Of a stretch of DNA of 64,000 nucleotides, positions 3,029-49,495 are shown piece after piece. The number at the start of each line of letters is the position of its first letter. Positions within the stretch are counted from its first letter, which is position 1. This DNA comes from Acidiferrobacteraceae bacterium. GTDB taxonomy: Bacteria > Pseudomonadota > Gammaproteobacteria > Acidiferrobacterales > SZUA-150. The stretch spans positions 13,090 to 77,089 of the forward strand of contig QIGL01000052.1 in the NCBI GenBank assembly GCA_003228915.1. The letters run 5' to 3'. The translations under genes and the position numbers were made by a program. Below the pieces are notes generated by a model. That model had not been told where the DNA came from, made no database searches, and saw only the letters and a program-made list of their open reading frames with translations.

Positions 3029-3076
3029 AAATATTTTCATAGTATTTTACCCGGTCATTATTCTTGAAATAAACAT

Positions 3077-3103
3077 GGATCGATTGCGTGATCTGGTGCG
3101 TCA
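3077..3103 (+). promoter_or_regulatory. Candidate ECF-type promoter for the DsrE-like/porin unit (GGATC-N17-CGTCA)
   Basis: Plus strand reads GGATC gattgcgtgatctggtg CGTCA. Near-copy of the minus-strand element at 3002-3028, including the GATTGC start of the spacer. Confidence 0.5.
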
Positions 3104-27971: not shown

Positions 27972-28322
27972 GGAAGTAATTTCTTTGCTCGCACCTGTGT
28001 CATTAAAAAGCCCTGGGCTCATGATGGACGATATTTGCGAAAACATATAACAACAAAGGACATGGAAAAGCGTTAATAACTACATGATTTAACAGGGCAC
28101 GTGACGCTAAACAGTCGTTTATCGGGCAATTTTGTTGATTTATGCTACCATTGGTTTCAAGAAATCCCGGTCATTAATATATGTGGTATTTCTGTCGTAT
28201 CTGGGGAGGTATCGACAGAGCAGGGCGGCCTCGGATACATTAAATACTGTAAGGGGCAATTAGTTCAGTTATAACAAGTAACATATTGCTGGCGTAATTC
28301 TGGGTTCATAGTGGTTGTAGTT

Positions 28323-31300
28323 ATGGTGAAACAGAGTATTAGTAACTACAGGCCATTCCTCTCTTCCCTGATAGTTTCATTTTTCCTTCTAATTCTTGCC
28401 AGCTGTGGCGGTGGCGGCGGTTCTGGGGGCGGCGGTTCTGGTGGTGGTGATACAACTCCGCCCACTGTGTCATCGACAGTACCGACAATTAATGCAACTG
28501 GTGCTGGCCTAAGCAGCGCATTCGCTGCAACATTTTCCGAGGCCCTGAACCCGGCCACAATTTCAACCGCAAGCTTTTCGGTTGTTGTCACCAGTGGTGG
28601 GGCGCCGGTATCTGGCACGGTGTCATATAATGGTGTCACTGCGACATTTACACCGGACAGTGTTTTGCCAGGGAATACACAATTCACCGCAACCTTAACA
28701 GGCGGCGCCGGCAATATTACTGACCTGGCAGGTAATCCTCTGGCCGCAGACTATGTCTGGAGTTTTACCACCGGCATAGCTCCGGATGGTACGCCGCCCA
28801 CTGTGTCATCGACCGTGCCGACAGCGAATGCCACGGGCGTTTCTTTGAATAGCGCAGTCACTGCTACATTTTCCGAGGCCCTGAACCCGGCCACAATTTC
28901 AACCGCAACCTTTTCGGTTGTTGTCACCAGTGGTGGGGCACCGGTATCAGGCGCAGTGACCTACAATGGCGTCACTGCAACGTTTACACCAGGCAGTGCT
29001 TTGGCCGGGGATACGCAATTCACTGCAACCTTGACAGGCGGTACCGGTAATATTGCTGATTTGGCTGACAACGTGTTGGTCGCGGATTATGTCTGGAGTT
29101 TTACCACCGGCCCGGCGCCGGACAGTACGTCGCCAACAGTATCATCGACCGTGCCGACAGCGAATGCCACGGGCGTTTCTTTGAACAGTGCAGTCGCTGC
29201 AACATTTTCCGAGGCCTTGAACCCGGCAACCATTTCAACCGCAACCTTTTCGGTTGTTGTCACCAGTGGTGGGGCACCGGTATCAGGCGCAGTGACCTAC
29301 AATGGCGTGACTGCAACGTTTACCCCCAGCAGTGCCTTACCGGCGGACACACAACTCACTGCAACCTTAACCGGCGGTGCCGGCAATATTGCTGACCTGG
29401 CAGGCAATCCCCTGGCTGCGAGCTATACCTGGAGTTTTACTACCGGCCCGGCGCCGGACAGTACGTCGCCGACAGTATCATCGACAGTGCCGACAACGAA
29501 TGCCACGGGCGTTTCTTTAAACAGCGCAATCTCTGCAACATTTTCCGAGGCCCTGGATCCGGCAACCATTTCAACGGCAAGCTTTTCGGTTGTCGTGACC
29601 AGTGGTGGGGCACCGGTATCTGGCACGGTGACCTACAATGGCGTCACGGCAACGTTTACCCCCAGCAGCGCTTTACCGGGGAGTACACAATTTACTGCAA
29701 CCTTAACAGGCACTGCCGGCAATATTGCTGATTTGGCAGGTAATCCGTTGGCTACGGACTATGTCTGGAGTTTTACTGCAGGCGCGGTTCCGGACAGTAC
29801 GTCGCCGACAGTATCATCGACCGTGCCGACAACGAATGCCACGGGCGTTTCTTTAAACAGCGCAATCTCTGCAACATTTTCCGAGGCCCTGAACCCGGCC
29901 ACAATTTCAACGGCAACCTTTTCTGTTGTCGTGACCAGTGGTGGAGCACCGGTACCAGGCACAGTAACCTATAATGGTGTTACTGCAACGTTTACCCCCA
30001 GCAGCGCTTTACCGGGGAGTACACAATTTACTGCAACCTTAACAGGCACTGCCGGCAATATTACTGACCTGGCAGGCAACCCTTTGACAACAAACTATGT
30101 CTGGAGTTTTACTACCGTCCCGCCACCGGACATCACGCCCCCCGCAGTATCATCGACTGTGCCGACAACGAATGCCACAGGCGTTTCTTTGAACAGCACA
30201 GTCACTGCAACATTTTCCGAGGCCCTGGATCCGGCAACCATTTCAACCGCAAGCTTTACGGTTGTTGTCACCAGTGGCGGGGCAACGGTGTCTGGTACGG
30301 TGTCATATAATGGCGTCACTGCGACGTTTACACCGGACAGTGTTTTGCCAGGGAATACACAATTCACCGCAACCTTAGCTGGTGGTGTCGGCAATATTAC
30401 TGACCTGGCAGGCAACCCTCTCGCTGCGAGCTACGTCTGGAGTTTTACCACGCAGCCAGATTTAATTCTCCCTGATGTCATAAGCCCGCTCAGCCCGGTC
30501 AGCAACGCAACCAATGTAGCGACCAATACGAACGTCAGCGCCACATTCTCGGAACCGATTACGCCTGGATCAGTGGTTTTCCTGCTCAATGGTCCTGGTG
30601 GTGCCGTTTCTACTTCACCACCCGCGCTTACTGGCAACAATGATTTCGTAACAATCAATCCTGCTGCATCGCTTGAAAATAATACCACTTATGTTGCCAC
30701 CATCAGTGCTGCTAGAGATATTGCTGGCAATAATCTGGCGATGCCTTTTAGCTGGAGTTTTACCACAGTACCTGCACCGGATACCGCGCCACCCACTGTG
30801 TCATCGCATACGCCAATTGTTGGTGCAACCGGTGTGTCGATTAATTCGGCAATTAGTATTATTTTTTCGGAGTCAATGAATCTGTTGACGATTAACGAAA
30901 CTAACATCACGATTGATGGTGGTGTCAGCGCAAGCTCGGTAACCTATAGCGGGGTGACTGCTGTTTTTACGCCGTCTGTTAATTTGGCCAATAACACCAC
31001 TTACACGGTTACCGTAACAACGGGTGCAACAGATGTAGCTGGAAATCCTATAGCTGCAAACTATACATTCAGTTTTACAACTGCAGCAGCACCAGACACA
31101 ACACCACCGACCGTGTCATCGACAGTGCCGGCAACGAATGCCACAGGTATATCTTTAAACAGCGCAGTAACCGCGACATTTTCCGAGGCCTTGAATCCAG
31201 CAACAATTATTTTATCAACCTTTTCTGTTGTTGAGACCATTGGTGGAGCACCGGTATTAGGCGCAGTGACCTATAATGGCGTCACTGCAACGTTTACCCC

Positions 31301-33653
31301 AGACAGTGATTTAGCTGGAGATACGCAATTTACCGCGACCTTAACAGGCGGCGGTGGCAATATTGCTGACCTGGCAGGGAATGTGCTGGTAGGGGAGTAT
31401 GCATGGAGTTTTACCACCGGCCCTATTCCGGATACGACACCACCCACAGTTGAGTCGACTGTGCCTGCCGACACCGCCACGGTCATAGCGACCAACACCG
31501 CTATTACCGCGTTATTTTCTGAAGCTATTGATCCGGCAACCATCAACACCAGCAATTTTTCGGTATATGACAATACTAATTCATTATCGGTGAGTGGCAC
31601 GGTTACTTACAATGGTTTAACAGCGACCTTTACACCCAATACAGTTTTGGCCAATGACGCCTTACACACTGTGGCCTTATCCGGGGTAACAGACACCGCT
31701 GGTAATTCTTTGCCATTAACAAACTGGACGTTTACCACGGCAGCAGCGCCAGACATTACCAATCCTTCGGTAAATCTTCCTACTGTTCCCGCAGATACAG
31801 CGACAAATGTAGATATAACAACCGCAATCTCGGCCACATTTGATGAGCCCATGGATGCGGCAACATTAAGCACGGCAACCTTTACAGTTAATGACGACAC
31901 CAATATGTTAGCAGTTAGCGGCACTGTTACTTACGACGGTACCACGGCCACTTTTCAGCCGGATGCCGTCCTGGCTTTTTCTGCTGATATTACAGCCACT
32001 ATCAATGGCGCAACTGATCTTGCTGGCAATCCTTTACCACTTACCAACTGGACATTTACCATCAGCGCCGCACCCGATACCACTGGACCACAAATTACCA
32101 GCACCAGCCCGGTAAATTCGTCGACAGATATTAGTTTGCGGCCAACAATCACAGTCAAATTTTCCGAGCTTATTGATTGCGCGACCTTACTGGATTCTAG
32201 CTTGAGTTTAACGGGTGGGGCAGTGGTGACTTTTACGGCAAGTTGTGGCGCTGATACTGCCACATTTATCCCCACTTCGGACCTCACCGTGAATACAACT
32301 TATACGGCAACTTTAAATGGCAGCATTACGGATATTGCCGCTAATGTACTGGTAGCTGGTTCGATACCAAACCCGTGGACGTTTACGACAGCACCAGAAT
32401 TGTGGACCGTCCAGTTTGGCAGCGATTCTCATGACCAGGTCCGTGGCGTAGTGACCGATACTGCCGGCAATGTTTATATTACAGGATCAACACTTGGCAA
32501 CATGGATGACCAGGTAAATGCCGGGGGCAATGACATTTTCCTGACCAAGTATTCGCCGGCTGGGGAACGTCTCTGGACCAGGTTTGCGGGCACCAATAGA
32601 ACAGATGTGGCCAATGCGCTTGCGGTTGATAGCGCGGATAATATTTATATTGCCGGCTATTCGAGAGGAGATCTTAATGGTGAAACAAATAACAATTTCA
32701 CAAAAGATGTTGCGGTTATTAAATATGATGCCACTGGTGCACGACTCTGGACCCGTCTGCTCGGCACCGGTTCTGATGATTTTGCATCAGCTATTACCAT
32801 AGATGGATCAGACAATATCTATGTGACCGGCACCACGTTTGGTGATTTTGATGGTGCGAGCTCTATGAGAAATGGTAGTGAATTCTTTTTGTTAAAACTT
32901 GCTAGCAGTGGTGCTGAGCAATGGCGGACACAGTTAGGGAGCAGCAATGACATTGTGGCGCGTGGCATCACCACAATTGGTACCAATGTTTATGTCGTGG
33001 GCCACACTAATGGCGGTTTGGCCGAACCGGTAGCCAGGACCAACTCTGGGGCAACTGATATATTTTTAGCCCGTTTCTCGACTGCTATTGGCACGCTAGA
33101 TTTATCACAGCTTTACGGGAATTCAGCTGATAATTTGGGTCACGGGATTGTTGCCTTTGGTACAGATTTGTATATTACCGGCAACACCAAGGGCGGACTA
33201 AAGGGCCTCGGTGGAGTTAACGTGCCTAGTATTGGTCTCATTGATGCATTTTTGATGCAAACTGACACGGCTGGTGTTGTCCAATGGACCAGGATCATTG
33301 GCACATCAGCAGATGATTTAGGGAGGGGTGTTACTGTTGATTCCAGCGGCGGTATTTATATCACCGGTTATACCGTGGGCAGCTTTACTGGCGCGGCCAA
33401 TGCTGGCAGTAATGATTTGTTTGTCACCAAGTATGATACTTCCGGCGCAACTGCATGGGCTACTCCGGTCGTCCGACAACTCGGCAGCGCCGCAGACGAT
33501 ACCGCCCGCGCTATTACCACCTATTCGACTGCGGGCGTGACCGATGTATTTGTTGTCGGCGAGACCCTGGGCGCACTGGATGGTAATGTGTCATTCGGCT
33601 TGAGTGATTTTTTTGCGGTGAAATATGATGGTGCTACGGGAACCAAGAATTAA
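28323..33653 (+). CDS. Giant surface lipoprotein: 12 SbsA/Big_5-like Ig modules plus C-terminal SBBP beta-propeller repeats
   Basis: Lipobox LILASCGGGGGSGG. 12 modules each start D-x-T/S-P-P-T-V-S-S-T-V-P and contain ATFSEAL(N/D)PATIS. The C-terminal third has D-x-x-GN-(I/V)-Y-I-T-G ... ND-(I/L)-F-L-x-K-Y repeats. The ORF is open from 28311 (GTG). Confidence 0.85.
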   Translation: MVKQSISNYRPFLSSLIVSFFLLILASCGGGGGSGGGGSGGGDTTPPTVSSTVPTINATGAGLSSAFAATFSEALNPATISTASFSVVVTSGGAPVSGTVSYNGVTATFTPDSVLPGNTQFTATLTGGAGNITDLAGNPLAADYVWSFTTGIAPDGTPPTVSSTVPTANATGVSLNSAVTATFSEALNPATISTATFSVVVTSGGAPVSGAVTYNGVTATFTPGSALAGDTQFTATLTGGTGNIADLADNVLVADYVWSFTTGPAPDSTSPTVSSTVPTANATGVSLNSAVAATFSEALNPATISTATFSVVVTSGGAPVSGAVTYNGVTATFTPSSALPADTQLTATLTGGAGNIADLAGNPLAASYTWSFTTGPAPDSTSPTVSSTVPTTNATGVSLNSAISATFSEALDPATISTASFSVVVTSGGAPVSGTVTYNGVTATFTPSSALPGSTQFTATLTGTAGNIADLAGNPLATDYVWSFTAGAVPDSTSPTVSSTVPTTNATGVSLNSAISATFSEALNPATISTATFSVVVTSGGAPVPGTVTYNGVTATFTPSSALPGSTQFTATLTGTAGNITDLAGNPLTTNYVWSFTTVPPPDITPPAVSSTVPTTNATGVSLNSTVTATFSEALDPATISTASFTVVVTSGGATVSGTVSYNGVTATFTPDSVLPGNTQFTATLAGGVGNITDLAGNPLAASYVWSFTTQPDLILPDVISPLSPVSNATNVATNTNVSATFSEPITPGSVVFLLNGPGGAVSTSPPALTGNNDFVTINPAASLENNTTYVATISAARDIAGNNLAMPFSWSFTTVPAPDTAPPTVSSHTPIVGATGVSINSAISIIFSESMNLLTINETNITIDGGVSASSVTYSGVTAVFTPSVNLANNTTYTVTVTTGATDVAGNPIAANYTFSFTTAAAPDTTPPTVSSTVPATNATGISLNSAVTATFSEALNPATIILSTFSVVETIGGAPVLGAVTYNGVTATFTPDSDLAGDTQFTATLTGGGGNIADLAGNVLVGEYAWSFTTGPIPDTTPPTVESTVPADTATVIATNTAITALFSEAIDPATINTSNFSVYDNTNSLSVSGTVTYNGLTATFTPNTVLANDALHTVALSGVTDTAGNSLPLTNWTFTTAAAPDITNPSVNLPTVPADTATNVDITTAISATFDEPMDAATLSTATFTVNDDTNMLAVSGTVTYDGTTATFQPDAVLAFSADITATINGATDLAGNPLPLTNWTFTISAAPDTTGPQITSTSPVNSSTDISLRPTITVKFSELIDCATLLDSSLSLTGGAVVTFTASCGADTATFIPTSDLTVNTTYTATLNGSITDIAANVLVAGSIPNPWTFTTAPELWTVQFGSDSHDQVRGVVTDTAGNVYITGSTLGNMDDQVNAGGNDIFLTKYSPAGERLWTRFAGTNRTDVANALAVDSADNIYIAGYSRGDLNGETNNNFTKDVAVIKYDATGARLWTRLLGTGSDDFASAITIDGSDNIYVTGTTFGDFDGASSMRNGSEFFLLKLASSGAEQWRTQLGSSNDIVARGITTIGTNVYVVGHTNGGLAEPVARTNSGATDIFLARFSTAIGTLDLSQLYGNSADNLGHGIVAFGTDLYITGNTKGGLKGLGGVNVPSIGLIDAFLMQTDTAGVVQWTRIIGTSADDLGRGVTVDSSGGIYITGYTVGSFTGAANAGSNDLFVTKYDTSGATAWATPVVRQLGSAADDTARAITTYSTAGVTDVFVVGETLGALDGNVSFGLSDFFAVKYDGATGTKN
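28449..32395 (+). repeat. Intragenic tandem repeat array (~336-bp period, about 12 units; units 2-6 nearly identical at DNA level)
   Basis: The same peptide blocks recur every ~112 aa. Antisense shadow ORFs in the track recur at a 336-nt offset (29423..29626 and 29759..29962). Confidence 0.85.
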
Positions 33654-39402: not shown

Positions 39403-39417
<15 letters not shown>

Positions 39418-39662
39418 TTCATAAAGAAAAGACCCCTTCATGGGGTCTTTTTTTATGAATTATGTTTTTGTGGGAGGAGAACCCCGGGTTCGACATTGCG
39501 CAGGGATGCGCAGGTGTCGCGTAGGCCAGGGATGACCTGAGCGAAGCGAGGAAATGCTGAATGAAACCCGAAGGGGTTCTACAGTGGGCCGAGAGCGGCG
39601 ACCCTTGGGGACGCCATTCATAAAGAAAAGACCCCTTCATGGGGTCTTTTTTTATGAATTAT
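39403..39662. repeat. 61-bp perfect direct repeat (39403..39463 and 39602..39662) flanking a 138-bp insert
   Basis: Both copies read cccttggggacgccattcataaagaaaagaccccttcatggggtctttttttatgaattat. That is the last 15 nt of tRNA-Glu plus its terminator. The insert has inverted termini agaacccc (39478..39485) and ggggttct (39573..39580). Confidence 0.85.
39430..39454 (+). terminator. Rho-independent terminator after tRNA-Glu (an identical second copy lies at 39629..39653)
   Basis: Stem agacccc, loop TTCAT, stem ggggtct, followed by a T-run. Confidence 0.8.
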
Positions 39663-39774
39663 ATTTCGTTTTCTGCGGGGGAATACAAACCCTGAGTTGA
39701 TGACATATATCACAAAAAATGTTGGGTGTTAAAACGACGGTAACGATCGTAATCACTGTATTTCACGGCAATCG

Positions 39775-39803
39775 TATACCTGTGTCATACACACAACTAT
39801 AGT
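39775..39803 (+). promoter_or_regulatory. Promoter-like element with embedded TGTGT-N3-ACACA box (copy 0)
   Basis: tatacc TGTGTCATACACACAAC tatagt. Perfect 5-3-5 palindrome, weak -35, good -10. Confidence 0.4.
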
Positions 39804-39866
39804 TGACCAGTGCGGAGAAAGGGGTCAGCCAAAACGTGACGGGGCCTTAGCGCCTAACCTGTTTGC

Positions 39867-39895
39867 TTGACCTGTGTCCGACACGCACTTAATAT
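39867..39895 (+). promoter_or_regulatory. Sigma-70 promoter with embedded TGTGT-N3-ACAC box (copy 1), upstream of the second DsrE-like gene
   Basis: TTGACC TGTGTCCGACACGCACT TAATAT, 17-nt spacer. Confidence 0.5.
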
Positions 39896-40034
39896 CTTCC
39901 TTCGCGTTGTCGGTCTGTAAATATTAACAGGCGGAGGATTGTGTGTGTTCAGTTCAAGTAAAACGTTTCGTAAACTGCCTCAAGAGAAACCAAACTAATC
40001 ATTATACCGAGGCGATAATTGGAGGATATAAAAA

Positions 40035-40475
40035 ATGAGTAAATTAATAAGAAATTCAAGCCTGATTGTACTAATGTCGTTATTTGTTTTTGGGAATTTA
40101 AGCGCGTTTGCTGGTGCGAAATTGCCGCATAAAGTAGTAATCCAGGTTAGTACTGATGATCCAAGAACCCAAAAAATAGCATTGAATAATGCCGTCAACC
40201 TGCAGAAGCTTTATGGTATTGATAATATTAAGATTGAAATTGTTGCCTATGGTCCAGGACTTGGGTTGTTGACAACAAAGAGCAAGCAGGCCGATAGAGT
40301 GAAAAGCCTGGCAGTGCAGGAGATAACCTTTAGCGCATGCCATAATACTATGAAAGGTGTTAAACGCAAAACAGGTAAAATGCCCGTCCTGCTTGAAGGT
40401 GTCGGAATGGTCACAGCAGGTGTTGCCCGTATTATAGAATTGCAAGAACAAGGGTACGCCTACGTCCGACCATAA
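40035..40475 (+). CDS. Secreted DsrE/DsrF-like family protein (paralog of 3208..3654)
   Basis: GGAGG RBS, signal peptide (FVFGNLSAFA). IEIVAYGPG, FSACHNT and GYAYVRP align along the full length with the 3208 protein. Confidence 0.75.
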   Translation: MSKLIRNSSLIVLMSLFVFGNLSAFAGAKLPHKVVIQVSTDDPRTQKIALNNAVNLQKLYGIDNIKIEIVAYGPGLGLLTTKSKQADRVKSLAVQEITFSACHNTMKGVKRKTGKMPVLLEGVGMVTAGVARIIELQEQGYAYVRP

Positions 40476-40499
40476 AATTTAAGAAACCTAGCTGAATAT

Positions 40500-40537
40500 G
40501 GATAGATCGTGGTTCGTTTCGCTCTCACGATCTATCC
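40500..40537 (+). terminator. 12-bp perfect stem hairpin downstream of the DsrE-like gene (weak T tail)
   Basis: Stem ggatagatcgtg, 14-nt loop, stem cacgatctatcc, followed by aggttt. Confidence 0.45.
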
Positions 40538-40683
40538 AGGTTTAGGTAAGCCCGTTAATGGTAGCGGGCGCTATATGTAAAGATATCGACGAAGTTCTCC
40601 GCACCAATAGACAGTCAACCGAAGAGATAAGCAGGCATATAAACGAACTTCGGTGCCAATTCAAGAAACCTACACCTTAGTGC

Positions 40684-40712
40684 TTGACATGTGTCTAACA
40701 CACACTTTCTAT
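40684..40712 (+). promoter_or_regulatory. Sigma-70 promoter with embedded TGTGT-N3-ACACA box (copy 2), upstream of the YVTN gene
   Basis: TTGACA TGTGTCTAACACACACT TTCTAT, 17-nt spacer. About 295 nt upstream of ATG 41008. Confidence 0.5.
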
Positions 40713-41007
40713 CTTTGAAAACACAGGAAACCAGCTGAAACAGACAATACTAGTATAGTGGTTTGTTCGCGGTGATAAGTGCTTTGCAGTTGCCACCGTA
40801 ACCGGGGTTTTTACATATATAAATTGGATATACCAAAAAATCCTCTGGAAAACTACTGGTTGTGGTTGTTGTAATAACAGTAACGAATATTAGTAATGGA
40901 TGATCCTGATCAGAGCGTGTAGCAACGATGTCATATGCGAAGCTGGATTCTGCCTGTAAATAACTCATTCGCTCGTTCATAGTTTCGATAACAACGGAGA
41001 TGAAGTA

Positions 41008-42135
41008 ATGAATAAAAATTTAATTTTGTTTTTCAGTATTATCATGGCGGGAACATTTTTTGCCGGCTCCCTCCCGGCTGTGGCAGGGAAAAAATCAGAT
41101 GAAGCAACGATTCTTTATATCACTAACGAAGGAAGTAACACGCTCTCGATAATAGATGGAGAAAAATATAAAGTTATCACAACAATACCGGTGGGCAAAA
41201 CCCCCCACCATCCATGGCTAGTGCCGGGAGGCAAGTATGTGTTTACCGATAACAGGGGGGAGAATACCTTGTCGGTAGTTGATGTAAAAGCCGGCAAAAC
41301 AATTAAAACCATCACCGTAGGTAACGCCCCCACTCATATAGTGTTTACGCCAGATGGAAAATATGCCTATGTGGCCAATACCAAAGATAAAACTACCTCG
41401 GTAATCGATCTTGCTGAACTCGAGGTCGCTGCCACTATTACAACCGGTGGCGGCTCACACGATCCTGCCATCACCCCGGATGGCAAGTTTGTCTATGTCA
41501 CTGCCAGGAAACCTGGCCATGTGGCAGTGATCGACACGTCCACGAATAAGGTCATTAAGAAAATATCCACGGGTGGAAAAGCGAATGGCGTGCGTATGAC
41601 AAAGGATGGCAAGTTTGTCTGGGTGGGTAATACCAAGGCCGGAACCGTATCCGTTATCGATACCGCGAAAAATAAGGTGGTCGCCACAATCAAGTCCGGT
41701 GCCGGAACCCATAACATCCGTTTTTCACCAGACGGTAAATATGCCTACGTCGGCAATATGAAAGATGGCAACCACGCAGTGATCAACACGGCCACATATA
41801 AGGTCGTTACACGAATACCGACTGGCAAAGGTGCAAACATCGCCTATTTCCATCCAAACGGTAAATACATCTATTTCTCCATTAACAAAGCCAATGAGAT
41901 CCCGGTAGTAGATGCTAAAACCAACAAGATAATTACGAAGATTCCAATCGGTGAAGGTGGTACGCACAACCTGGCCTTTGTGGATGGTGGCAAGTTCCTC
42001 TACGCCACCAGTTGGTTCGGTGAATATATCCTTGTGATTGATACCAGGAAAAATAAAGTTATCAAAGAGATACCGGCGATGTTCTCCAACGGCATAAAAG
42101 TAAAAGGCGCAACACCAGCGACCGGCAGGGGATGA
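41008..42135 (+). CDS. YVTN-family beta-propeller repeat protein, secreted
   Basis: Signal peptide (FFAGSLPAVAG). About 8 repeats of ~40 aa of the form Y-V-x-N-x-x-x-x-T-(L/V)-S-V-I-D...I-x-V-G-x-x-P-x-x-(I/V)-x-x-(T/S)-P-D-G-K. Confidence 0.85.
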   Translation: MNKNLILFFSIIMAGTFFAGSLPAVAGKKSDEATILYITNEGSNTLSIIDGEKYKVITTIPVGKTPHHPWLVPGGKYVFTDNRGENTLSVVDVKAGKTIKTITVGNAPTHIVFTPDGKYAYVANTKDKTTSVIDLAELEVAATITTGGGSHDPAITPDGKFVYVTARKPGHVAVIDTSTNKVIKKISTGGKANGVRMTKDGKFVWVGNTKAGTVSVIDTAKNKVVATIKSGAGTHNIRFSPDGKYAYVGNMKDGNHAVINTATYKVVTRIPTGKGANIAYFHPNGKYIYFSINKANEIPVVDAKTNKIITKIPIGEGGTHNLAFVDGGKFLYATSWFGEYILVIDTRKNKVIKEIPAMFSNGIKVKGATPATGRG

Positions 42136-42143
42136 ATGATACG

Positions 42144-42171
42144 GGAGCAGCCGTTTAACAGCGGCTGCTCC
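42144..42171 (+). terminator. 10-bp stem hairpin after the YVTN gene (no T tail)
   Basis: Stem ggagcagccg, loop TTTAACAG, stem cggctgctcc. Confidence 0.35.
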
Positions 42172-42297
42172 ACCCAATTGGTTATTTGGTTAAGCTAGAC
42201 AGACGAAGGCAGCGTTTAATTTATTGCCGATTTTGATGTCTCACATGGAGTTATAAATCACAGAAAAAAAGTGTTAACATATTCCAACAAACCCGGC

Positions 42298-42416
42298 CGT
42301 GCCCTGTTCGGGGGTAACTGTCGTGCCCTGTTCGGGGGTAACTGTCGTGCCCTGTTCGGGGGTAACTGTGGGCGCCACCTGGCAAGGACTATCGGCGCCA
42401 CCTGACAAGGAATATT
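42298..42416 (+). repeat. Two back-to-back tandem repeat arrays immediately upstream of the exporter start codon
   Basis: cgtgccctgttcgggggtaactgt x3, perfect, 24 bp (42298..42369). Then ggcgccacctggcaaggactatc / ggcgccacctgacaaggaatatt, 23 bp x2 (42371..42416). The ATG is at 42420. Confidence 0.9.
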
Positions 42417-42419
42417 GTT

Positions 42420-44771
42420 ATGCGAAAGCTGGTCGAACAATATGTCCCGGGTTATACTCGCTGGATTATACGCTGGCGCTGGCTGGTAGTAGTTGCAAGC
42501 CTGATTGCGGTGGCAGCAGCGGGTTATGGTTTGCGTAATTTTGCATTCACTGCTGATTACAAAGTCTATTTCGGAAAAGACAATCCCGAGCTCATTACTT
42601 TTCAAAAATTCGAGAACACTTATACCAATACCGAGAATATCCTTTTTGTCCTTCAGCCCAGGGATAAAAATATTTTCACCCGCGAGACCCTGGAGATTGT
42701 CAAGCAACTGACCGAAAAGGCCTGGCAAATTCCTTATGCCATTCGTGTCGACTCGCTTACCAATTACCAGCATACCGAGGCCAAGGGCGATGATCTGACC
42801 GTGGCTGACCTGGTGGCAGAACCACAAGCACTGAAGGCTGCCGACCTGGACAGGATCAGGGCCGTGGCACTTGAAGAGCCAGCCCTGGTAGGGCGCATGA
42901 TCGCGGCAGATGGCGCCACCACCGGTATCTCGGTGACCTTACAGTTTCCTGGCACAGACCATACTGGACATTTACCCAAGGCAGTGGCCTACGCAGAAAA
43001 AATTACGGCGGAGTTGCGTATAACCCATCCTGATCTGAGAGTGGCCCTCACTGGCGTTTCAATCTTCAGTGCAGCGGAAATCCAGGTTAGTGAATCGGAT
43101 TCATACGTCCTGGTGCCAGTAATGTACGGCCTGATGATTACGTTATTGTTGGTACTTTTGCGCTCGGTTTCCGGTACCGTGACAACACTGCTTGTGGTCA
43201 GCTTGTCGGTCATTACTGCCCTGGGGCTCATGTCCTGGACAGGTCTCAAGATGAATGCATCGACGGCACTGGCGCCGATTATTATTCTTACTCTCGCTAT
43301 TGCCGACAGTGTCCACATCTTGCTGACCACCTTCGACGAAGTGCGTGCTGGCCGCTCGAAAAATGAAGCCCTGGTAGAAAGTTTGAGCATTAATGCGGAG
43401 CCGGTGTTTTTGACCATGTTAACGACAGGCATCGGTTTTTTTAGCCTCAATTTTTCTGACTCACCGCCGTTTAATGATCTTGGTAATATCACCGCTATCG
43501 GGGTTATTGCCGCCTGGATATTCTCCATGACTTTTCTGCCCGCGTTAATGTCGATCCTGCCATTGCGACTACGACCGAAAACAGGTGAACGACGCCTGGC
43601 CATGGATCGTTTCGGCGATTTCGTGGTTAGTCGTCGCGTGCCCTTGTTTTGGAGCATGATGATAGCCAGCATTGTCATTATCGCCTTCATTCCTCGCCTT
43701 GAACTGGATGACCGTTTTATCCAGTGGTTTGATGAAAGCATTCCGTTTCGTGTCGATACGGATTTTGCCACTGCTAATCTTACGGGCCCTTATACGCTGG
43801 AGTATTCCATCGACTCCGGCGAGGCTGGTGGTATTTCTGAGCCCGAATACTTGCAACGACTGGAGACTTTTACCATCTGGTTGCGAGCACAGCCCGAGAT
43901 TACCCACGTCAATAGTTTCACTGATGTAATAAAGCGGCTCAACAAGTCCATGCATGGCGATGACCCCGGTTGGTACCGGTTACCTGATAAGCGGGAACTG
44001 GCCGCACAATATTTATTATTGTATGAAATGTCTCTGCCCTATGGTCTTGATCTCAATAGCCAGATTGATCTGGGTAAATCGGCAACACGGTTAACGGTGA
44101 CCCTGGATACTATCCCGCAGAAAAATATTATCGAGGTAATAAAGCGCAGCGAATCATGGCTGTCGGATAACATGCCACCGGCCATGCAGGCAAGGGCGAC
44201 AGGCACCATTGTCATGTTCGTGAATCTTGCGATCCGAAATATTTACAGCATGTTGGGCGGCACGATCCTGGCTTTTGTATTGATTTCCTTAACGCTGATA
44301 TTTGCCCTACGTAGCATTCGCCTGGGCTTGATAAGCCTGATCCCCAACTTTTTGCCGGTGTTAATCACCTTTGGTTTATGGGCAATTTTCGTTGGCGAGA
44401 TTGGGCTCATTGCCTCTATGATTACCGCTACCAGCATGGGACTCATTGTCGATGATACGGTCCACATACTTAGCAAGTACCGGCGCGCAAAACACGCGCA
44501 AAACCTTGGTACCCACGATGCAATTCGTTACAGCTTTTCCCATGTGGGTAAGGCCCTCTGGGTAACCACTTTGATAATGATTGCCGGATTTATTGTGTTG
44601 GCCTTTTCCAGTTACAAGCTAAATGTCGAAATGGGTATACTGACTGTCATGGCCGTTGGTGTAGCCTTGGCCATGGATTTCCTGCTATTACCCTCTTTAT
44701 TAATGTTTATGGATAAAGACAAACAATGTAACTGTGTCACTTGTCGGGAGAAACATCTTGCTACAACATGA
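42420..44771 (+). CDS. MMPL/RND-superfamily exporter (12-TM, two large periplasmic loops)
   Basis: 783 aa. Two homologous halves, each with a TM bundle carrying an SSD-like segment (ILTLAIADSVHIL and MGLIVDDTVHILSKY). Confidence 0.85.
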   Translation: MRKLVEQYVPGYTRWIIRWRWLVVVASLIAVAAAGYGLRNFAFTADYKVYFGKDNPELITFQKFENTYTNTENILFVLQPRDKNIFTRETLEIVKQLTEKAWQIPYAIRVDSLTNYQHTEAKGDDLTVADLVAEPQALKAADLDRIRAVALEEPALVGRMIAADGATTGISVTLQFPGTDHTGHLPKAVAYAEKITAELRITHPDLRVALTGVSIFSAAEIQVSESDSYVLVPVMYGLMITLLLVLLRSVSGTVTTLLVVSLSVITALGLMSWTGLKMNASTALAPIIILTLAIADSVHILLTTFDEVRAGRSKNEALVESLSINAEPVFLTMLTTGIGFFSLNFSDSPPFNDLGNITAIGVIAAWIFSMTFLPALMSILPLRLRPKTGERRLAMDRFGDFVVSRRVPLFWSMMIASIVIIAFIPRLELDDRFIQWFDESIPFRVDTDFATANLTGPYTLEYSIDSGEAGGISEPEYLQRLETFTIWLRAQPEITHVNSFTDVIKRLNKSMHGDDPGWYRLPDKRELAAQYLLLYEMSLPYGLDLNSQIDLGKSATRLTVTLDTIPQKNIIEVIKRSESWLSDNMPPAMQARATGTIVMFVNLAIRNIYSMLGGTILAFVLISLTLIFALRSIRLGLISLIPNFLPVLITFGLWAIFVGEIGLIASMITATSMGLIVDDTVHILSKYRRAKHAQNLGTHDAIRYSFSHVGKALWVTTLIMIAGFIVLAFSSYKLNVEMGILTVMAVGVALAMDFLLLPSLLMFMDKDKQCNCVTCREKHLATT

Positions 44772-44796
44772 TCAAATCATAAGGAGGGTGCCAGTT

Positions 44797-45600
44797 ATGA
44801 ATAAAATAATTCTGGCGCTTGTTATTGCATCTGTAGTGTCTGTGCTGATCCCGGTATCGGTATCGGCTGCCGAGGATCCCGTGGTTAAAGGCGAAGCAAT
44901 TGCTCGCGAATGGGACCGTCGTGATCGCGGATACGGTGATACCAGCGCGAATATGAAAATGATTCTGGAAAACCGCCAGGGGCAAACCAGTGAACGGAAA
45001 ATGCGCATATTCTTCCTTGAAATGCCAAACGAAAATGATGGCGACAAGTCCATGGTGGTATTTGATTATCCCCGCGATATCAAGGGCACGGCATTGCTCA
45101 GTTATTCACATATCCTCAAGCCTGATGATCAGTGGCTCTATCTTCCGGCTTTGAAGCGCGTGAAGCGTATTTCTTCCAACAACAAATCCGGTCCCTTCAT
45201 GGGTAGCGAGTTCGCATACGAGGACATCAGTTCCCAGGAGCTGAAGAAATACAGTTATAAATGGCTGCGTGATGAACCTTGCGGCAAGTCTGATTGTTTT
45301 GTACTGGAACAACGTCCGTTGTATGAGAATTCCGGTTATACCCGTCAAGTTGCCTGGTATGACAAGGAGGCATATCGCCTGCAGCGCATAGACTACTACG
45401 ACCGCAGGAATGCGTTGCTGAAAACACTTGGTTTTAGCAAGTACCAAAAACATTTGGATAAATACTGGCGTGCCCATGACATGTATATGGTCAATAAACA
45501 AACGGGGAAAAAAACCAGGCTGGTTTATGAAAATCTTAAATTTAAAAGTGGACTGACAGACAAGGACTTCACGCAAAGCCGTCTGAAACGTATGCGCTGA
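44797..45600 (+). CDS. Outer-membrane lipoprotein-sorting (LolA-like) protein, secreted
   Basis: AAGGAGGG RBS. ATG lies 25 nt after the exporter stop. Signal peptide (VLIPVSVSA/AEDP). The body resembles the LolA-like family commonly found next to MMPL exporters (recognition from memory). The ORF is open from 44734. Confidence 0.65.
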   Translation: MNKIILALVIASVVSVLIPVSVSAAEDPVVKGEAIAREWDRRDRGYGDTSANMKMILENRQGQTSERKMRIFFLEMPNENDGDKSMVVFDYPRDIKGTALLSYSHILKPDDQWLYLPALKRVKRISSNNKSGPFMGSEFAYEDISSQELKKYSYKWLRDEPCGKSDCFVLEQRPLYENSGYTRQVAWYDKEAYRLQRIDYYDRRNALLKTLGFSKYQKHLDKYWRAHDMYMVNKQTGKKTRLVYENLKFKSGLTDKDFTQSRLKRMR

Positions 45601-45610
45601 TATTTAATCT

Positions 45611-46879
45611 ATGACCCCGCTGATGAGGCCCGCGATATATTTATTAACTATTCTGGCAACAATACTGGCCGTTCTGTCAAAATCAGCCATGGCGCTGGAG
45701 TTCGCCGGTTGGGCTGAGCTGGAGGGCAAAACCTTTCAATACGAGCCGCTCTACGAAGGGCAACAGCAGAACAGCGCTTCGGCTGCTATTCAGCCTGAAA
45801 TTTATCAGGAGTGGGCCGGCGGGAATGCGTTTACCTTTGTTCCTTTTTACCGTTATGACAGTGCCGACGATCAACGAACCCACTTTGATATCAGGGAAGC
45901 CATGTTGCTTTTGCCATGGGAAAACTACGAACTCAGGCTCGGTCTTGGTAAGGTGTTTTGGGGTGTGACGGAAGCGAGCCATCTCGTCGATATTATCAAT
46001 CAAACTGACCTGGTGGAGTCTCTCGACGGGGAAGAAAAACTGGGCCAGCCAATGGTTAACCTTACGTTATTGGCTCAACAGGAAACACTGGGCGTCCTGG
46101 ATTTTTTTGTGCTTCCCTATTTTCGTGAACGGACGTTTCCAGGGCGCGGCGGTCGTTTACGGTTTGATCCTTATATTGATATTGATAATGGGGTTGAATA
46201 CGAAAATAGTGCCAGGCAGGGCCATGTCGATTACGCATTGCGTTACAGCAACACCATTGACAAACTGGACGTAGGAATTTCCTATTTTTACGGGACAACC
46301 CGGGAGCCTGCCTATTTACCGAAGTTCGATGCCAATGGCATCCTGAGCATTATTCCATTTTATGAAATCATCAGCCAGACGGGCCTTGATTTGCAATATG
46401 CTGGTGGTGCCTGGTTATGGAAACTGGAGACTATTTATCGCAGTGGTAACGAAGACGGTAGTTTTTATGCTACTGACGCTGGTGTTGAATATACATTTTC
46501 AGGGACTGGTTTGTCTGGTATGGATCTTGGCCTAATCCTGGAATATTTGTATGACAGCCGTGATTTTGATGTCGACCCTGCAGTACTTATCGCCAGCGGT
46601 TATATTGGCAGCCAGTTTAATACTTTTCTTGATAATGACTACATGATTGGATTACGCCTGGCGTTTAATGACGAGGCCTCGTCCGAGATTCTGACAGGAG
46701 TGATACAGGACATTGACAACCATGCCTCGATATTTCAGCTGGAAGCTAGCCGCAGAATTGGTGACAGCTTAAAAGCAGAATTGGATGCCTATGTATTTAT
46801 GGATACAAGCAAAGACCCGTTGTTGGATTTTCTGCGTAAGGACAGTTTCGTCCAGTTGGCACTGAAGTATTATTTCTAA
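45611..46879 (+). CDS. Putative outer-membrane beta-barrel protein
   Basis: Starts 10 nt after the upstream stop. Signal peptide (AVLSKSAMA/LE), alternating strands, C-terminal LALKYYF. Confidence 0.6.
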   Translation: MTPLMRPAIYLLTILATILAVLSKSAMALEFAGWAELEGKTFQYEPLYEGQQQNSASAAIQPEIYQEWAGGNAFTFVPFYRYDSADDQRTHFDIREAMLLLPWENYELRLGLGKVFWGVTEASHLVDIINQTDLVESLDGEEKLGQPMVNLTLLAQQETLGVLDFFVLPYFRERTFPGRGGRLRFDPYIDIDNGVEYENSARQGHVDYALRYSNTIDKLDVGISYFYGTTREPAYLPKFDANGILSIIPFYEIISQTGLDLQYAGGAWLWKLETIYRSGNEDGSFYATDAGVEYTFSGTGLSGMDLGLILEYLYDSRDFDVDPAVLIASGYIGSQFNTFLDNDYMIGLRLAFNDEASSEILTGVIQDIDNHASIFQLEASRRIGDSLKAELDAYVFMDTSKDPLLDFLRKDSFVQLALKYYF

Positions 46880-46908
46880 AGAGAAAATATCGTATTGGCA
46901 AGCACGAC

Positions 46909-46937
46909 TTGACATGTCACTGACACGTATCTTTTAA
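46909..46937 (+). promoter_or_regulatory. Sigma-70 promoter with a related dyad box (copy 3), upstream of the small metal-motif genes
   Basis: TTGACA TGTCACTGACACGTATC TTTTAA, 17-nt spacer. The dyad is TGTCA-C-TGACA, a weaker match to the TGTGT-N3-ACACA box. Confidence 0.4.
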
Positions 46938-47025
46938 AATCACCTCGTAAGTTTAATATCAAAGAGCGGAATTGTGAGAATGCTGCCGGGTGTGGTTATG
47001 ATTGGTGGAATTTTAGGAGAAAGTA

Positions 47026-47172
47026 ATGGAGTGGCTAACGGAAAACTGGATCTGGGTGCTGGTCGGTCTGGCGTTTTTTGCCCTGCATTTACTGGGTCAT
47101 GGTCGTCACGGTGGTCATGGAAAAAGCGATAAACAGGATAAACCGGGCAAGCAACCAGAACACCGGGATTAA
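47026..47172 (+). CDS. Small His-rich membrane protein (48 aa, DUF2933-like); below the ORF-track size cutoff
   Basis: AGGAGA RBS 6 nt upstream of the ATG. My translation: MEWLTENWIWVLVGLAFFALHLLGHGRHGGHGKSDKQDKPGKQPEHRD. One TM helix plus an HGxHGGHG tail. Confidence 0.6.
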   Translation: MEWLTENWIWVLVGLAFFALHLLGHGRHGGHGKSDKQDKPGKQPEHRD

Positions 47173-47251: not shown

Positions 47252-47425
47252 ATGAAAACACAAAACAGTGAACACGAACAGAACCAAAAGGATCCAGTCT
47301 GCGGTATGGATGTCAGTCACGCTGCAGTTAGTGAAGAATTCAAATACCGGGATAAAACCTACTACTTTTGTTCCGGGGCCTGTCGGGAGACGTTTGAGAA
47401 GGAACCTGAGAAATACATTCATTAA
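47252..47425 (+). CDS. YHS-domain protein (57 aa); below the ORF-track size cutoff
   Basis: AGGAGA RBS 6 nt upstream of the ATG. My translation: MKTQNSEHEQNQKDPVCGMDVSHAAVSEEFKYRDKTYYFCSGACRETFEKEPEKYIH. It matches the YHS/TRASH pattern DPVCGM...Y-x-x-x-x-YYFCS-x-x-C-x-x-x-F. Confidence 0.8.
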   Translation: MKTQNSEHEQNQKDPVCGMDVSHAAVSEEFKYRDKTYYFCSGACRETFEKEPEKYIH

Positions 47426-47670
47426 CCCGTAAGTCGTTATCCTGACAAGAAATCAGCAGAACTAGTGTTGACAGGCCGTGAGCTGTGGTCTGCAGGCTGT
47501 TGTTTGAGTCGAGCCCACAAATATTACCATGATATTCCCATTCCGTAGCAGGAATGCATGGCTGGTATTGGTTGCAAGTATCCGAAATAGTGTATAGTCC
47601 GGTTGCAACGGCTTGTTAATACATCATGTTCAACTCAAACAATAAAGTTAATAAGACAATGGAAGGCATA

Positions 47671-48201
47671 ATGAAGAAAAATATTTTTTACCTGATCCTG
47701 TTCAGTTTTTCATTGCTGGCAGCTTGCTCAACGACCCCTACAGACGATATTAAAGTTGAAGCAGCGGCCGACGAGGATGTTAATTTTAGTAATTATAAAT
47801 CCTACGCCTGGGCAGGGGCGGTAGGTATTCTAAATGACCCGGAAGGAAAGTGGAAACAGCCCAATTTTGACATTGATAAAGAGATACAGTTCTTAATGGA
47901 CCGGGAATTCAGAAAAAATGGGTTAACCGAAAATTCCAGTAAACCTGATATGCTCGTTGCCTATGCTCTGGGTGTTGACATGTCTGCACTCAAGCTTAAA
48001 GATGATCCGAATACGAAGACATCAATGCTCAAGAATATCCCAAAAGGCGCTTTAATCATAATTCTTATTGATGCAAAGACGGGTTATGCCATGTGGGTTG
48101 GCCAGGTAAGTGCGCAAATTAAACAAAGTCCAGATATGAAAATTGTTAAAGCACGGCTGGATTATGCAATAACTGAAGTAATGAAAAAAATACCGAAGTA
48201 G
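47671..48201 (+). CDS. Lipoprotein (DUF4136-like)
   Basis: Lipobox LLAACS from the internal ATG 47671 (the ORF is open from 47626). The DUF4136 assignment is from memory of the family. Confidence 0.6.
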   Translation: MKKNIFYLILFSFSLLAACSTTPTDDIKVEAAADEDVNFSNYKSYAWAGAVGILNDPEGKWKQPNFDIDKEIQFLMDREFRKNGLTENSSKPDMLVAYALGVDMSALKLKDDPNTKTSMLKNIPKGALIIILIDAKTGYAMWVGQVSAQIKQSPDMKIVKARLDYAITEVMKKIPK

Positions 48202-48310: not shown

Positions 48311-49495
48311 CTAAAAATATTTAAGATAGAGTATATAGAGCTTTTCGAAAGAATTTTTAACCCTGACAAGAAATTTTGATCGTTTTGGAAAAATATTCCA
48401 AAACGGTGGTTTATTATCACTGGATCTGTGCATCCACATGCCATCATTTTCCATATTCAGGATACAGGAAAGCTCATAACGATAAGTAGTGACAGGTTTT
48501 TTGTTGTTTAAAATGTTGTTCATATTTTTAGCCACGGCTTGCGATCGAAGTTGTGCCATATGTGCCTGGTGGGGCACCCAGGGAGGCGGATTTTCATGGC
48601 TGGCACAGTCACCCGCTGCAAATACATTTTTTAGGCCCTTGACCTGGCCATATTTATCGACATCAACATGACCGCCTGGTGAAACAGTTATGCATGATTG
48701 TTGTAACCATTTTGCACCTGTTATACCAGGAGAATAAAGCACTAAATCCGCTTTTCGGACGGTCCCGTCTTTATCTTTCAGGCCACCTTCGATAAATTCA
48801 GCGGGTTCATAACCATAATCCAGGATAATGCCTCGTTCCTGCAGGCGATCGGTAATGGCACCTGCCTCACCAGGTTTTCTGTTAGGTGAAAAAAAGTGAA
48901 TTTCAAAATTATCCCGTACGCCTTTTTTCTTTAGTGCAAAGTCCAGCAAGGTGGCGCATTCATATATTTGTCCAGCGCGGCCTGCCACAAAACCATCAAG
49001 TTTATTGATCTTAAAACCGATATAAATGACGCCAGAAGTTAGTGACGCCAGTTTGGCCATAAATTTGTCCATATCGTCGGGACCATGACAGGGCGAAAAG
49101 GTGTGCGCTTTTGTGCCGGGAATATCATCATCCAGGAAAGATGGCCCTATACCCAGAAATAATGCATCGTTCTCGTATGATCCATTTTTGGCGATGACTT
49201 TACGGCCATTATCCTGGATATCAATTACGACATCGTCAATAAATTTAATGTTTCGGCGCCGTAAAAAAGGACGTATATCAGTGAGCACACCTTTTTTGTT
49301 TTTCTTTCCCGTGATAAATTCCGGGATTGAAGGGAAATAGGTAAATACACCATTTCCGATAAGTGTAATATCATATCGCGCTATTATTTTTCGGAAGAAA
49401 AACGCAAAAAACGGGTATATCGGTAAAAAGAGTAAATACTGGACTAAAAATAATGAAGCAAACCCATTCCCGACAATAGTTACTTTTTTTCTCAC
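48311..49495 (-). CDS. FAD/NAD(P)-dependent pyridine nucleotide-disulfide oxidoreductase (SQR/NDH-2-like)
   Basis: N-terminal VTIVGNGFAS, C-terminal FAAGDCA flavin motif, 394 aa. A hydrophobic insertion follows the first Rossmann strand. Confidence 0.65.
   Translation of the reverse strand: MRKKVTIVGNGFASLFLVQYLLFLPIYPFFAFFFRKIIARYDITLIGNGVFTYFPSIPEFITGKKNKKGVLTDIRPFLRRRNIKFIDDVVIDIQDNGRKVIAKNGSYENDALFLGIGPSFLDDDIPGTKAHTFSPCHGPDDMDKFMAKLASLTSGVIYIGFKINKLDGFVAGRAGQIYECATLLDFALKKKGVRDNFEIHFFSPNRKPGEAGAITDRLQERGIILDYGYEPAEFIEGGLKDKDGTVRKADLVLYSPGITGAKWLQQSCITVSPGGHVDVDKYGQVKGLKNVFAAGDCASHENPPPWVPHQAHMAQLRSQAVAKNMNNILNNKKPVTTYRYELSCILNMENDGMWMHRSSDNKPPFWNIFPKRSKFLVRVKNSFEKLYILYLKYF

Follow-up and report, generated by a model that had tools for sequence, protein, structure and literature searches.

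A 64,000-nt stretch of an Acidiferrobacteraceae genome (contig QIGL01000052.1, positions 13,090 to 77,089; the whole stretch is referred to here as the window) contains three promoters, sites 1 to 3, that have the architecture of MerR-dependent sigma-70 promoters, and through which an unlinked regulator of one MerR subfamily probably activates three transcription units jointly in response to metal. A sequence-only reading of the window had described four sites as a -35 element followed by a TGTGT-N3-ACACA dyad that fills a 17-nt spacer, and had proposed that a dimeric repressor acting in trans occludes this spacer. We kept its numbering, in which the sites run from 0 to 3 in coordinate order. 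The sequences re-read at the four positions all matched those reported, and the sites as we now delimit them are as follows, with the earlier layout in brackets.

39778–39798, no strand assigned: site 0, 21-bp pseudo-palindrome ACCTGTG-TCATACA-CACAACT (earlier, from 39775, TATACC-TGTGTCATACACACAAC-TATAGT)
39867–39898, plus strand: site 1 promoter, -35 TTGACC at 39867–72, operator ACCTGTG-TCCGACA-CGCACTT at 39870–90, -10 TATCTT at 39893–98, 20-bp spacing (earlier, from 39867, TTGACC-TGTGTCCGACACGCACT-TAATAT)
40684–40715, plus strand: site 2 promoter, -35 TTGACA at 40684–89, operator ACATGTG-TCTAACA-CACACTT at 40687–40707, -10 TATCTT at 40710–15, 20-bp spacing (earlier, from 40684, TTGACA-TGTGTCTAACACACACT-TTCTAT)
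46909–46940, plus strand: site 3 promoter, -35 TTGACA at 46909–14, degenerate operator ACATGTC-ACTGACA-CGTATCT at 46912–32, -10 TAAAAT at 46935–40, 20-bp spacing (earlier, from 46909, TTGACA-TGTCACTGACACGTATC-TTTTAA)

Spacer length and symmetry axis point to the promoter class. In sites 1 to 3 a TAnnnT hexamer lies exactly 20 nt from TTGACN (TATCTT in sites 1 and 2, TAAAAT in site 3), and the hexamer at 20 bp is TATAAT upstream of the DsrE homologues of two other loci (L002 and L004), TAGAAT in a Nitrospirota locus (L009), and TAAACT in a second Nitrospirota locus (L012) and in a vent gammaproteobacterial metagenome-assembled genome (MAG; L010). Of 25 related sites, 17 have TAnnnT at 20 bp and 6 have it at 19 bp; no site has it at 18 bp, and site 1 alone has it at 17 bp. 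The 17-nt layout is thus found in 1 of the 25 sites and the longer spacing in 23, and the -10 hexamers chosen in the sequence-only reading do not fit: those at 17 nt are poor in site 2 (TTCTAT), in site 3 (TTTTAA), and in aligned sites (TTGTAA and alike). The dyad axis had likewise been placed at spacer position 7, but symmetry is higher about position 8 in nearly all sites. Symmetric pairs about position 8 number 7 of 10 in site 2, 5 of 10 in site 1 and 4 of 10 in site 3, and sites adjacent to merR genes have 7–10 of 10 such pairs versus 2–5 about position 7. The consensus operator, ACCTGTG-N7-CACAGGT, begins at position 4 of the -35 hexamer and is centered on spacer position 8, and the TGTGTC-NN-ACAC word described earlier is its inner part. 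A spacer of 19–20 bp with a dyad abutting the -35 element is the signature of MerR-family promoters such as PcopA, PzntA, and Pmer, and sites 1 to 3 probably belong to this class.

These measurements bear directly on the proposed repression, in which a non-MerR dimer bound to TGTGT-N3-ACACA would block RNA polymerase at promoters of ordinary 17-nt spacing. Site 1 does contain a reasonable TTGACC-N17-TAATAT promoter, also picked by a consensus scan, and sites 0 and 2 have a perfect inner dyad. Moreover, metal-free MerR proteins repress from the same position, so some repression would fit both models. However, sites 2 and 3 have poor hexamers at 17 nt, TAnnnT is missing at 17 nt in 24 of the 25 related sites, the symmetry favors position 8, and the operator family adjoins merR genes. 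Occlusion by a repressor of another family is quite unlikely on this evidence. The 20-bp spacers and the match to merR-adjacent operators point instead to a MerR-type activator that distorts the DNA and represses weakly, if at all, without metal.

This match came from merR genes on plasmids, gathered by homology to the regulator of L010, in seven genera (Alteromonas, Salinimonas, Glaciecola, Methylophaga, Vibrio, Shewanella, and Acidovorax). Nearly all of these genes adjoin the same architecture, consisting of TTGACC, TGTG-N7-CACA(GGT), a 19- or 20-bp spacer, and TAnnnT, which sits 85–110 nt 5' of the merR-family gene or directly after it. Some of the palindromes are perfect (e.g., ACCTGTGAGC-G-GCTCACAGGT). 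Examples are the following.

Salinimonas: -35 TTGACC, spacer TGTGAGCGGCTCACAGGTT, -10 TATCGT, a perfect 10-1-10 palindrome
Methylophaga thalassica: -35 TTGACC, spacer TATGTCAAGGACACAGGTT, -10 TATAGT
Shewanella: -35 TTGAGC, spacer TGTGTGTAACACACAGAGT, -10 TATAGT
Vibrio plasmid: -35 TTGACC, spacer TATGTCTAACACATAGGTTT of 20 bp, -10 TAAGCT
Methylophaga pinxianii, directly 3' of merR: -35 TTGACT, spacer TATGTGCGGCACACAGCTTT of 20 bp, -10 TATTAT

Over TGTCTAACACA the Vibrio site is almost identical to site 2 of the window. L010 holds a subfamily regulator, a site before copA, and the window-like site TGTGTCCCACACCCACGT, all within 2.7 kb, and on an Acidovorax plasmid (L044) merR lies directly 5' of a cyclopropane-fatty-acid-synthase-like (CMAS) gene. 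The regulators of this subfamily share SPCP and C(H)LIE motifs, fall below all NCBIfam equivalog cut-offs for CueR, ZntR, MerR, and CadR, and have MerR as their closest solved relative (E = 1.6e-13). Their genes usually stand beside copA, cupredoxin, DUF2933, and ICMT genes, in plasmid copper clusters of the order merR-copA-cupredoxin-DUF2933-ICMT. Clusters of this order in Alteromonas, which are copper-inducible, regularly include DUF2933 (PMC8478169), and the operator of these clusters is not described in that study.

The comparison with characterized systems places the operator close to, and distinct from, the CueR box. As in PcopA, the promoter of the Escherichia coli Cu(I) sensor CueR, the -35 context is CTTGACC, the spacer is over-long, the targets belong to copper homeostasis, and a 21-bp dyad with 7-bp arms and a 7-bp center starts at -35 position 4 with its axis at spacer position 8. 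The arms differ (ACCTGTG/CACAGGT here, ACCTTCC/GGAAGGT in the CueR box), as do the spacer (20 bp here, 19 bp in PcopA) and the regulators, which have SPCP...C(H)LIE where CueR has a C112-X7-C120 loop. A strict CueR regulon (TIGR02044, CCTTCC-N7-GGAAGG) was rejected on the TGTG/CACA-based arms and on the scores of the regulators, 52–73 bits against a cut-off of 147.4. PzntA, which ZntR activates by DNA distortion, also has a 20-bp spacer and a dyad overlapping the end of the -35 hexamer; it differs in its operator (ACTCTGGAGTC/GACTCCAGAGT), its axis at position 8.5, and its zinc-efflux targets. Pmer shares the general architecture but has the operator TCCGTAC...GTACGGA. The Alteromonas-type merR-copA clusters (PMC8478169) have the same operator family 5' of merR (L038, TTGACC-TGTGAGCAACACATAGGTT-TACCCT) and DUF2933 as a target. 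Unlike the window, they encode their regulator in cis, mostly have 19-bp spacers, and have an ATPase and a cupredoxin as targets in place of DsrE-like, YVTN-MMPL-LolA-like, and YHS genes.

The operator family also speaks to whether an alternative sigma factor might read these promoters with no regulator bound to the spacer. One candidate would be the extracytoplasmic function (ECF) sigma factor encoded at 2426–2980, together with its neighboring 249-aa gene. The sequence-only reading had found no candidate HTH regulator in the window, and Pfam finds no classical DNA-binding regulator there, only this ECF sigma, which is the sole sigma or transcription-factor gene detected there, receiver-domain proteins aside. 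In addition, sites 1 and 2 agree at approximately 28 of 36 nt over a stretch that begins 5' of the -35 and ends 3' of the -10; their likeness is thus one of whole promoters, flanks included, and extends beyond the dyad. ECF promoters are of the GAAC...CGTC type, whereas the hexamers here are sigma-70-like (TTGACC, TAnnnT); palindromic symmetry would be useless to a sigma factor, and the architecture adjoins merR genes in seven genera. Reading by an alternative sigma factor is thus highly improbable. The ECF sigma gene lies on the minus strand and is followed on that strand by the 249-aa gene (1606–2355), which has no Pfam family and possibly encodes its anti-sigma factor. Sigma-32, ECF sigma, and CRP/FNR class II boxes, the CopY box (TACAnnTGTA), and CusR/CopR, ArsR/SmtB, and GntR/FadR motifs do not fit in sequence or geometry.

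We then scored the window with a position matrix derived from 10–12 merR-adjacent plasmid sites only, in two forms (spacer-only and with the -35), on both strands (approximately 128,000 positions) and against 200 first-order random windows. The top five positions were the four sites of the sequence-only reading, site 0 appearing on both strands: site 2 (19.6 bits), site 1 (12.8 bits), site 0 on the minus strand (7.8 bits), site 3 (6.8 bits), and site 0 on the plus strand (4.8 bits), with an unrelated position next at 4.7 bits. The random windows had a mean maximum of 6.0 ± 3.6 and a highest of 18.9, with 0.055 matches per window at 13 bits or more and 0.34 at 8 bits or more. Site 2 scored 19.6–20.9 across matrix forms, above the maximum of the 200 random windows, which makes it individually compelling as a sequence match, and site 1 is a probable genuine member. 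Site 3 scored 6.8–8.6 and is fourth best in the window; site 0 on the minus strand reached 20.0 with the spacer-only matrix, the best score in the window by that form. The top ranking of the four sites is significant in itself, allowing for their choice by mutual similarity. The repeated TGTGTC..ACAC word is also real within the window: TGTGTCNNACAC has 3 exact matches (39781, 39873, and 40690, all inside 39781–40701) against 0.07 expected, and none of 100 shuffles gave 3. The looser TGTGTNNNACACA with one mismatch allowed is weakly enriched (5 matches against 2.0 expected).

The promoter-operator is conserved before orthologues of the genes concerned. A metagenome scan with the MMPL protein encoded downstream of site 2 gave related marine-sediment contigs, in which the matrix found sites that had not been picked by motif.

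L022:14372: TTGACC-TGTGCCTTACACACATCTTT-TATACT, approximately 115 nt 5' of the YVTN orthologue (81% identity)
L022:14257, minus strand: divergent partner of the preceding site, before a CMAS gene that it would drive
L022:7395: TTGACC-TGTGACCAACACACAGCTTC-TATACT, score 36.9, between copA/copB-like multicopper-oxidase genes and a DUF2933-ICMT pair
L015:21210: TTGACT-TGTCACTAGCACATAGGTTT-TACACT, before another CMAS gene
L014:1198 and L021:1513: sites with a perfect right arm (CACAGGT), adjoining MMPL paralogues

The YVTN and DUF2933 orthologues of L022 thus carry stronger copies of the promoter-operator than the window does, and these strong sites give the regulon support across genomes. They indicate that use of the operator is wide in the lineage and that orthologues of the window's YVTN and DUF2933 units share its control. 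Upstream of the DsrE homologues of L013, L002, and L004 (83–88% identity), ACCTGTTTRCTTGACCTG and the AT-rich -10 region are kept, the spacer varies, and the TGTGTC..ACAC word is kept in part; in L002 and L004 the perfect TATAAT stands at exactly 20 bp. Two further searches were negative: homologues of the YVTN protein among the matches listed were generic beta-propellers, the best 38% identical, with no orthologues, and the DUF2933 peptide had no tblastn match on plasmids.

Two arrangements on these contigs were seen in passing. In L022 (14230–14410) two MerR-type promoters lie back to back, approximately 115 nt apart, one toward the CMAS gene on the left and the other toward the YVTN orthologue on the right. 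In L015 at 3822 (also in L032 at 4414) a weaker site, TTGACA-TGTGCCTAAGGCAAGGGTTG-TACCCT (6.8 bits), lies 5' of a CBS-domain gene that is followed by a homologue (70% identity) of the SQR-like flavoprotein of the window. The SQR-like gene of the window (48311–49495, minus strand) lacks a site of this kind in the 150-nt gap before it.

Several observations weigh against a regulon of three units, and some favor a narrower explanation in which only site 2, perhaps with its operon, is truly regulated, sites 0, 1, and 3 being decayed duplicates or chance likenesses of TG/CA-rich sequence beside ordinary -35 boxes. By matrix score sites 0 and 3 alone are at chance level, their 5–8 bits lying where approximately 0.3–0.5 matches per window are expected. 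The spacer-only score of site 1 ranks 10th, with 4.3 such matches expected; its right arm is weak (4/7), and it has a second possible -10, the usable TAATAT at 39890–95 with 17-bp spacing. More generally, the left arms in the window are good but the right arms are degenerate (CGCACTT, CACACTT, and CGTATCT versus CACAGGT). Site 0 is the best palindrome of the window sites but lacks a TTGAC -35, and its ACCTGTG arm is missing from the orthologous DsrE upstream regions of L002, L004, and L013. These regions retain the -35 and the left arm, and the right arm varies; DsrE homologues sit in unrelated contexts, and the closest orthologue of site 1, L013, has one extra nucleotide in the spacer, which would disrupt the MerR geometry. 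Site 0 could act as an auxiliary operator or, on the minus strand, as a weak promoter running leftward (TATAGT-N19-TACGAT). Given the TAATAT at 17 bp and the insertion in L013, the promoter of the DsrE-like gene may work basally with sigma-70, or its sequence may be drifting.

Nor is the strict composite word TTGACNTGTGTCNNACACNCAC enriched across genomes: a scan of 596 Gb of genomes, the source genome not among them, gave 6 matches versus approximately 17 expected by base-count arithmetic. Literature searches (motif words; MerR with DUF2933) found no description of, or experiment on, the subfamily operator. Finally, no MerR-like gene was found in the window by tblastn or Pfam, and the 10 kb beyond its left edge contain folD, thyA, folA, rhodanese, FimV, and asd genes and no regulator, so that the source genome is presumed to encode the regulator elsewhere.

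Against a site 2 acting alone stand the five best matrix matches of the window, which are exactly the four pre-specified sites, the TAnnnT at 20 bp in each of sites 1 to 3, the strong sites at both the DUF2933 and the YVTN orthologues of L022, and the perfect TATAAT at 20 bp before the DsrE genes of L002 and L004. We consider it unlikely that site 2 is the only regulated one, and joint activation from sites 1 to 3 remains our preferred explanation.

Three of the 6 matches to TTGACNTGTGTCNNACACNCAC flank metal genes. In L009 and L012 the match lies 5' of cusC-like outer-membrane genes followed by cusB-like genes, and in L010 it lies downstream of the merR-copA pair. The matches in L007, L008, and L011 look like chance, being coding or without a -10. 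The L012 contig, from a Nitrospiria MAG, also has an Hg-type MerR promoter, TTGACT-CCGTAGCTTAGTACGGAGT-TTATGC (3060–3100, minus strand), before a merR-merF-zfCopZ cluster, so that two MerR-type operator codes, Hg-type and, at the downstream cusC-like gene, TGTGTC-type, occur side by side. The MerR of this locus was rejected as regulator of the TGTGTC-type cusC promoter because its own promoter has the Hg-type TCCGTA..TACGGA.

The genes downstream of the sites in the window, with Pfam assignments unless noted, are the following.

40035–40475, plus strand: DsrE-like gene, 146 aa (Pfam DsrE, E = 6e-6), 3' of sites 0 and 1
41008–42135, plus strand: YVTN beta-propeller
42420–44771, plus strand: MMPL/RND transporter
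44734–45600, plus strand: LolA-like protein
45611–46879, plus strand: 422-aa protein without Pfam family
47026–47172, plus strand: DUF2933 His-rich peptide, 3' of site 3
47252–47425, plus strand: YHS-domain protein, 3' of site 3
47626–48201, plus strand: DUF4136 protein, 3' of site 3

The N-terminus of the DsrE-like protein looks, by eye, like a signal peptide, and homologues of this protein occur in varied genomic contexts. The four genes at 41008–46879 are co-directional, and no terminator-like site was found in the gap at 42136–42419; they form a putative operon driven by site 2. Upstream of the sites lie moaA, gltX, tRNA-Ala, and tRNA-Glu, followed by a terminator near 39625–39655, and 3' of the DUF4136 gene, on the opposite strand, lie the SQR-like flavoprotein and then a PAS-GGDEF gene. 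Rfam at gathering threshold finds only tRNAs in the whole window.

In the mechanism that we propose, a dimer from the uncharacterized MerR subfamily, encoded outside the window, would bind the 20-bp spacer. Without ligand the promoter would be weak because its -35 and -10 hexamers are out of phase; the ligand-bound dimer would untwist and kink the spacer so that RNA polymerase opens the promoter, as judged from the MerR family. Three units would be switched on in this way: the periplasmic DsrE-like gene, the YVTN-MMPL-LolA-like-422-aa envelope cluster, and the DUF2933-YHS-DUF4136 genes. Of the earlier proposal, a dimeric regulator that acts in trans from the spacer and links the units is supported by the sites before the L022 orthologues and by the lack of a MerR gene in the window; its action as an occluding repressor is not. 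Cu(I) or Ag(I) would be the most likely ligand, because the targets include copA, cupredoxin, multicopper-oxidase, cusCBA, DUF2933, and YHS genes and because the Alteromonas clusters are induced by copper.

MerR-type metal-responsive promoters are a known class; the operator code and the regulator subfamily were not found described in the literature searches. We tentatively raise the broader possibility, for which the odds are less than even, that an uncharacterized SPCP...C(H)LIE MerR subfamily with its own ACCTGTG-N7-CACAGGT code runs a regulon for copper or thiophilic metals well beyond efflux ATPases. In marine-sediment Gammaproteobacteria this regulon would include envelope lipid remodeling and transport (CMAS, MMPL/RND, LolA-like, and YVTN) and a periplasmic sulfur-carrier-like DsrE, and the same promoter type would serve cusC-like operons in Nitrospirota. 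One would not expect a copper-type MerR sensor to control genes for envelope lipids and transport, CMAS, and a DsrE-like protein. The reading of the sites as MerR-type gives a probable metal-stress context to poorly understood genes (DsrE-like, YVTN-MMPL-LolA-like, DUF2933, YHS, and DUF4136). The working consensus TTGACC-TGTG-N7-CACAGGT-N1-2-TAnnnT for this widespread, unstudied subfamily of copper-resistance plasmids would make its regulons predictable in genomes and metagenomes. The window also illustrates how a default 17-bp reading of the -10 can mask MerR-type promoters.

Some minor features were noted around the three units. The last approximately 70 nt of the DsrE-like 5' untranslated region (39966–40034) are conserved in L013, L002, L004, L005, and L006 (AACGTTTCGTAAA..CCTC..GAAAC..CATACCGAGGYGAT.ATTGGAGGAT), even at 79–80% protein identity with differing promoters. 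In the RNAalifold prediction a GCCTC/GAGGC stem contains one compensatory pair, and UUUC pairs with the GGAG of the Shine-Dalgarno sequence; this region, which has no Rfam match, may be a leader for translational control. A hairpin without a T-run, ggatagatcgtg...cacgatctatcc, lies at approximately 40501–40538, 3' of the DsrE-like gene. The predicted YVTN leader (40722–41007) is approximately 286 nt long, versus approximately 115 nt in L022, and a 76-aa open reading frame (ORF) without Pfam match lies antisense to it (40750–40980).

On the minus strand from site 0, where TACGAT stands 19 bp from TATAGT, a transcript of approximately 140 nt would reach the hairpin at 39625–39655, which is terminator-like on this strand too. 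On the minus strand at 39652–39763 lies a 34-aa ORF that starts with GTG, lacks a visible Shine-Dalgarno sequence, and encodes an FCDICHQLRVC motif; this stretch may be a small divergent transcript, or nothing. A 65-nt direct repeat (98% identity; 39403–39467 and 39602–39666, copies 199 nt apart) comprises the 3' end of tRNA-Glu and the terminator hairpin; possible readings are a second tRNA-Glu copy that has decayed and an att-like duplication at the border of the accessory block. Approximately 6 kb 5' of this block, a gene at 28311–33653 (plus strand) encodes a protein of 1780 aa that contains 12 Big_5 Ig-like repeats as well as SBBP propeller repeats. This protein matches the CopC domain over the whole protein (E = 4e-12), no single stretch passing alone, and it may be a copper-binding surface protein.

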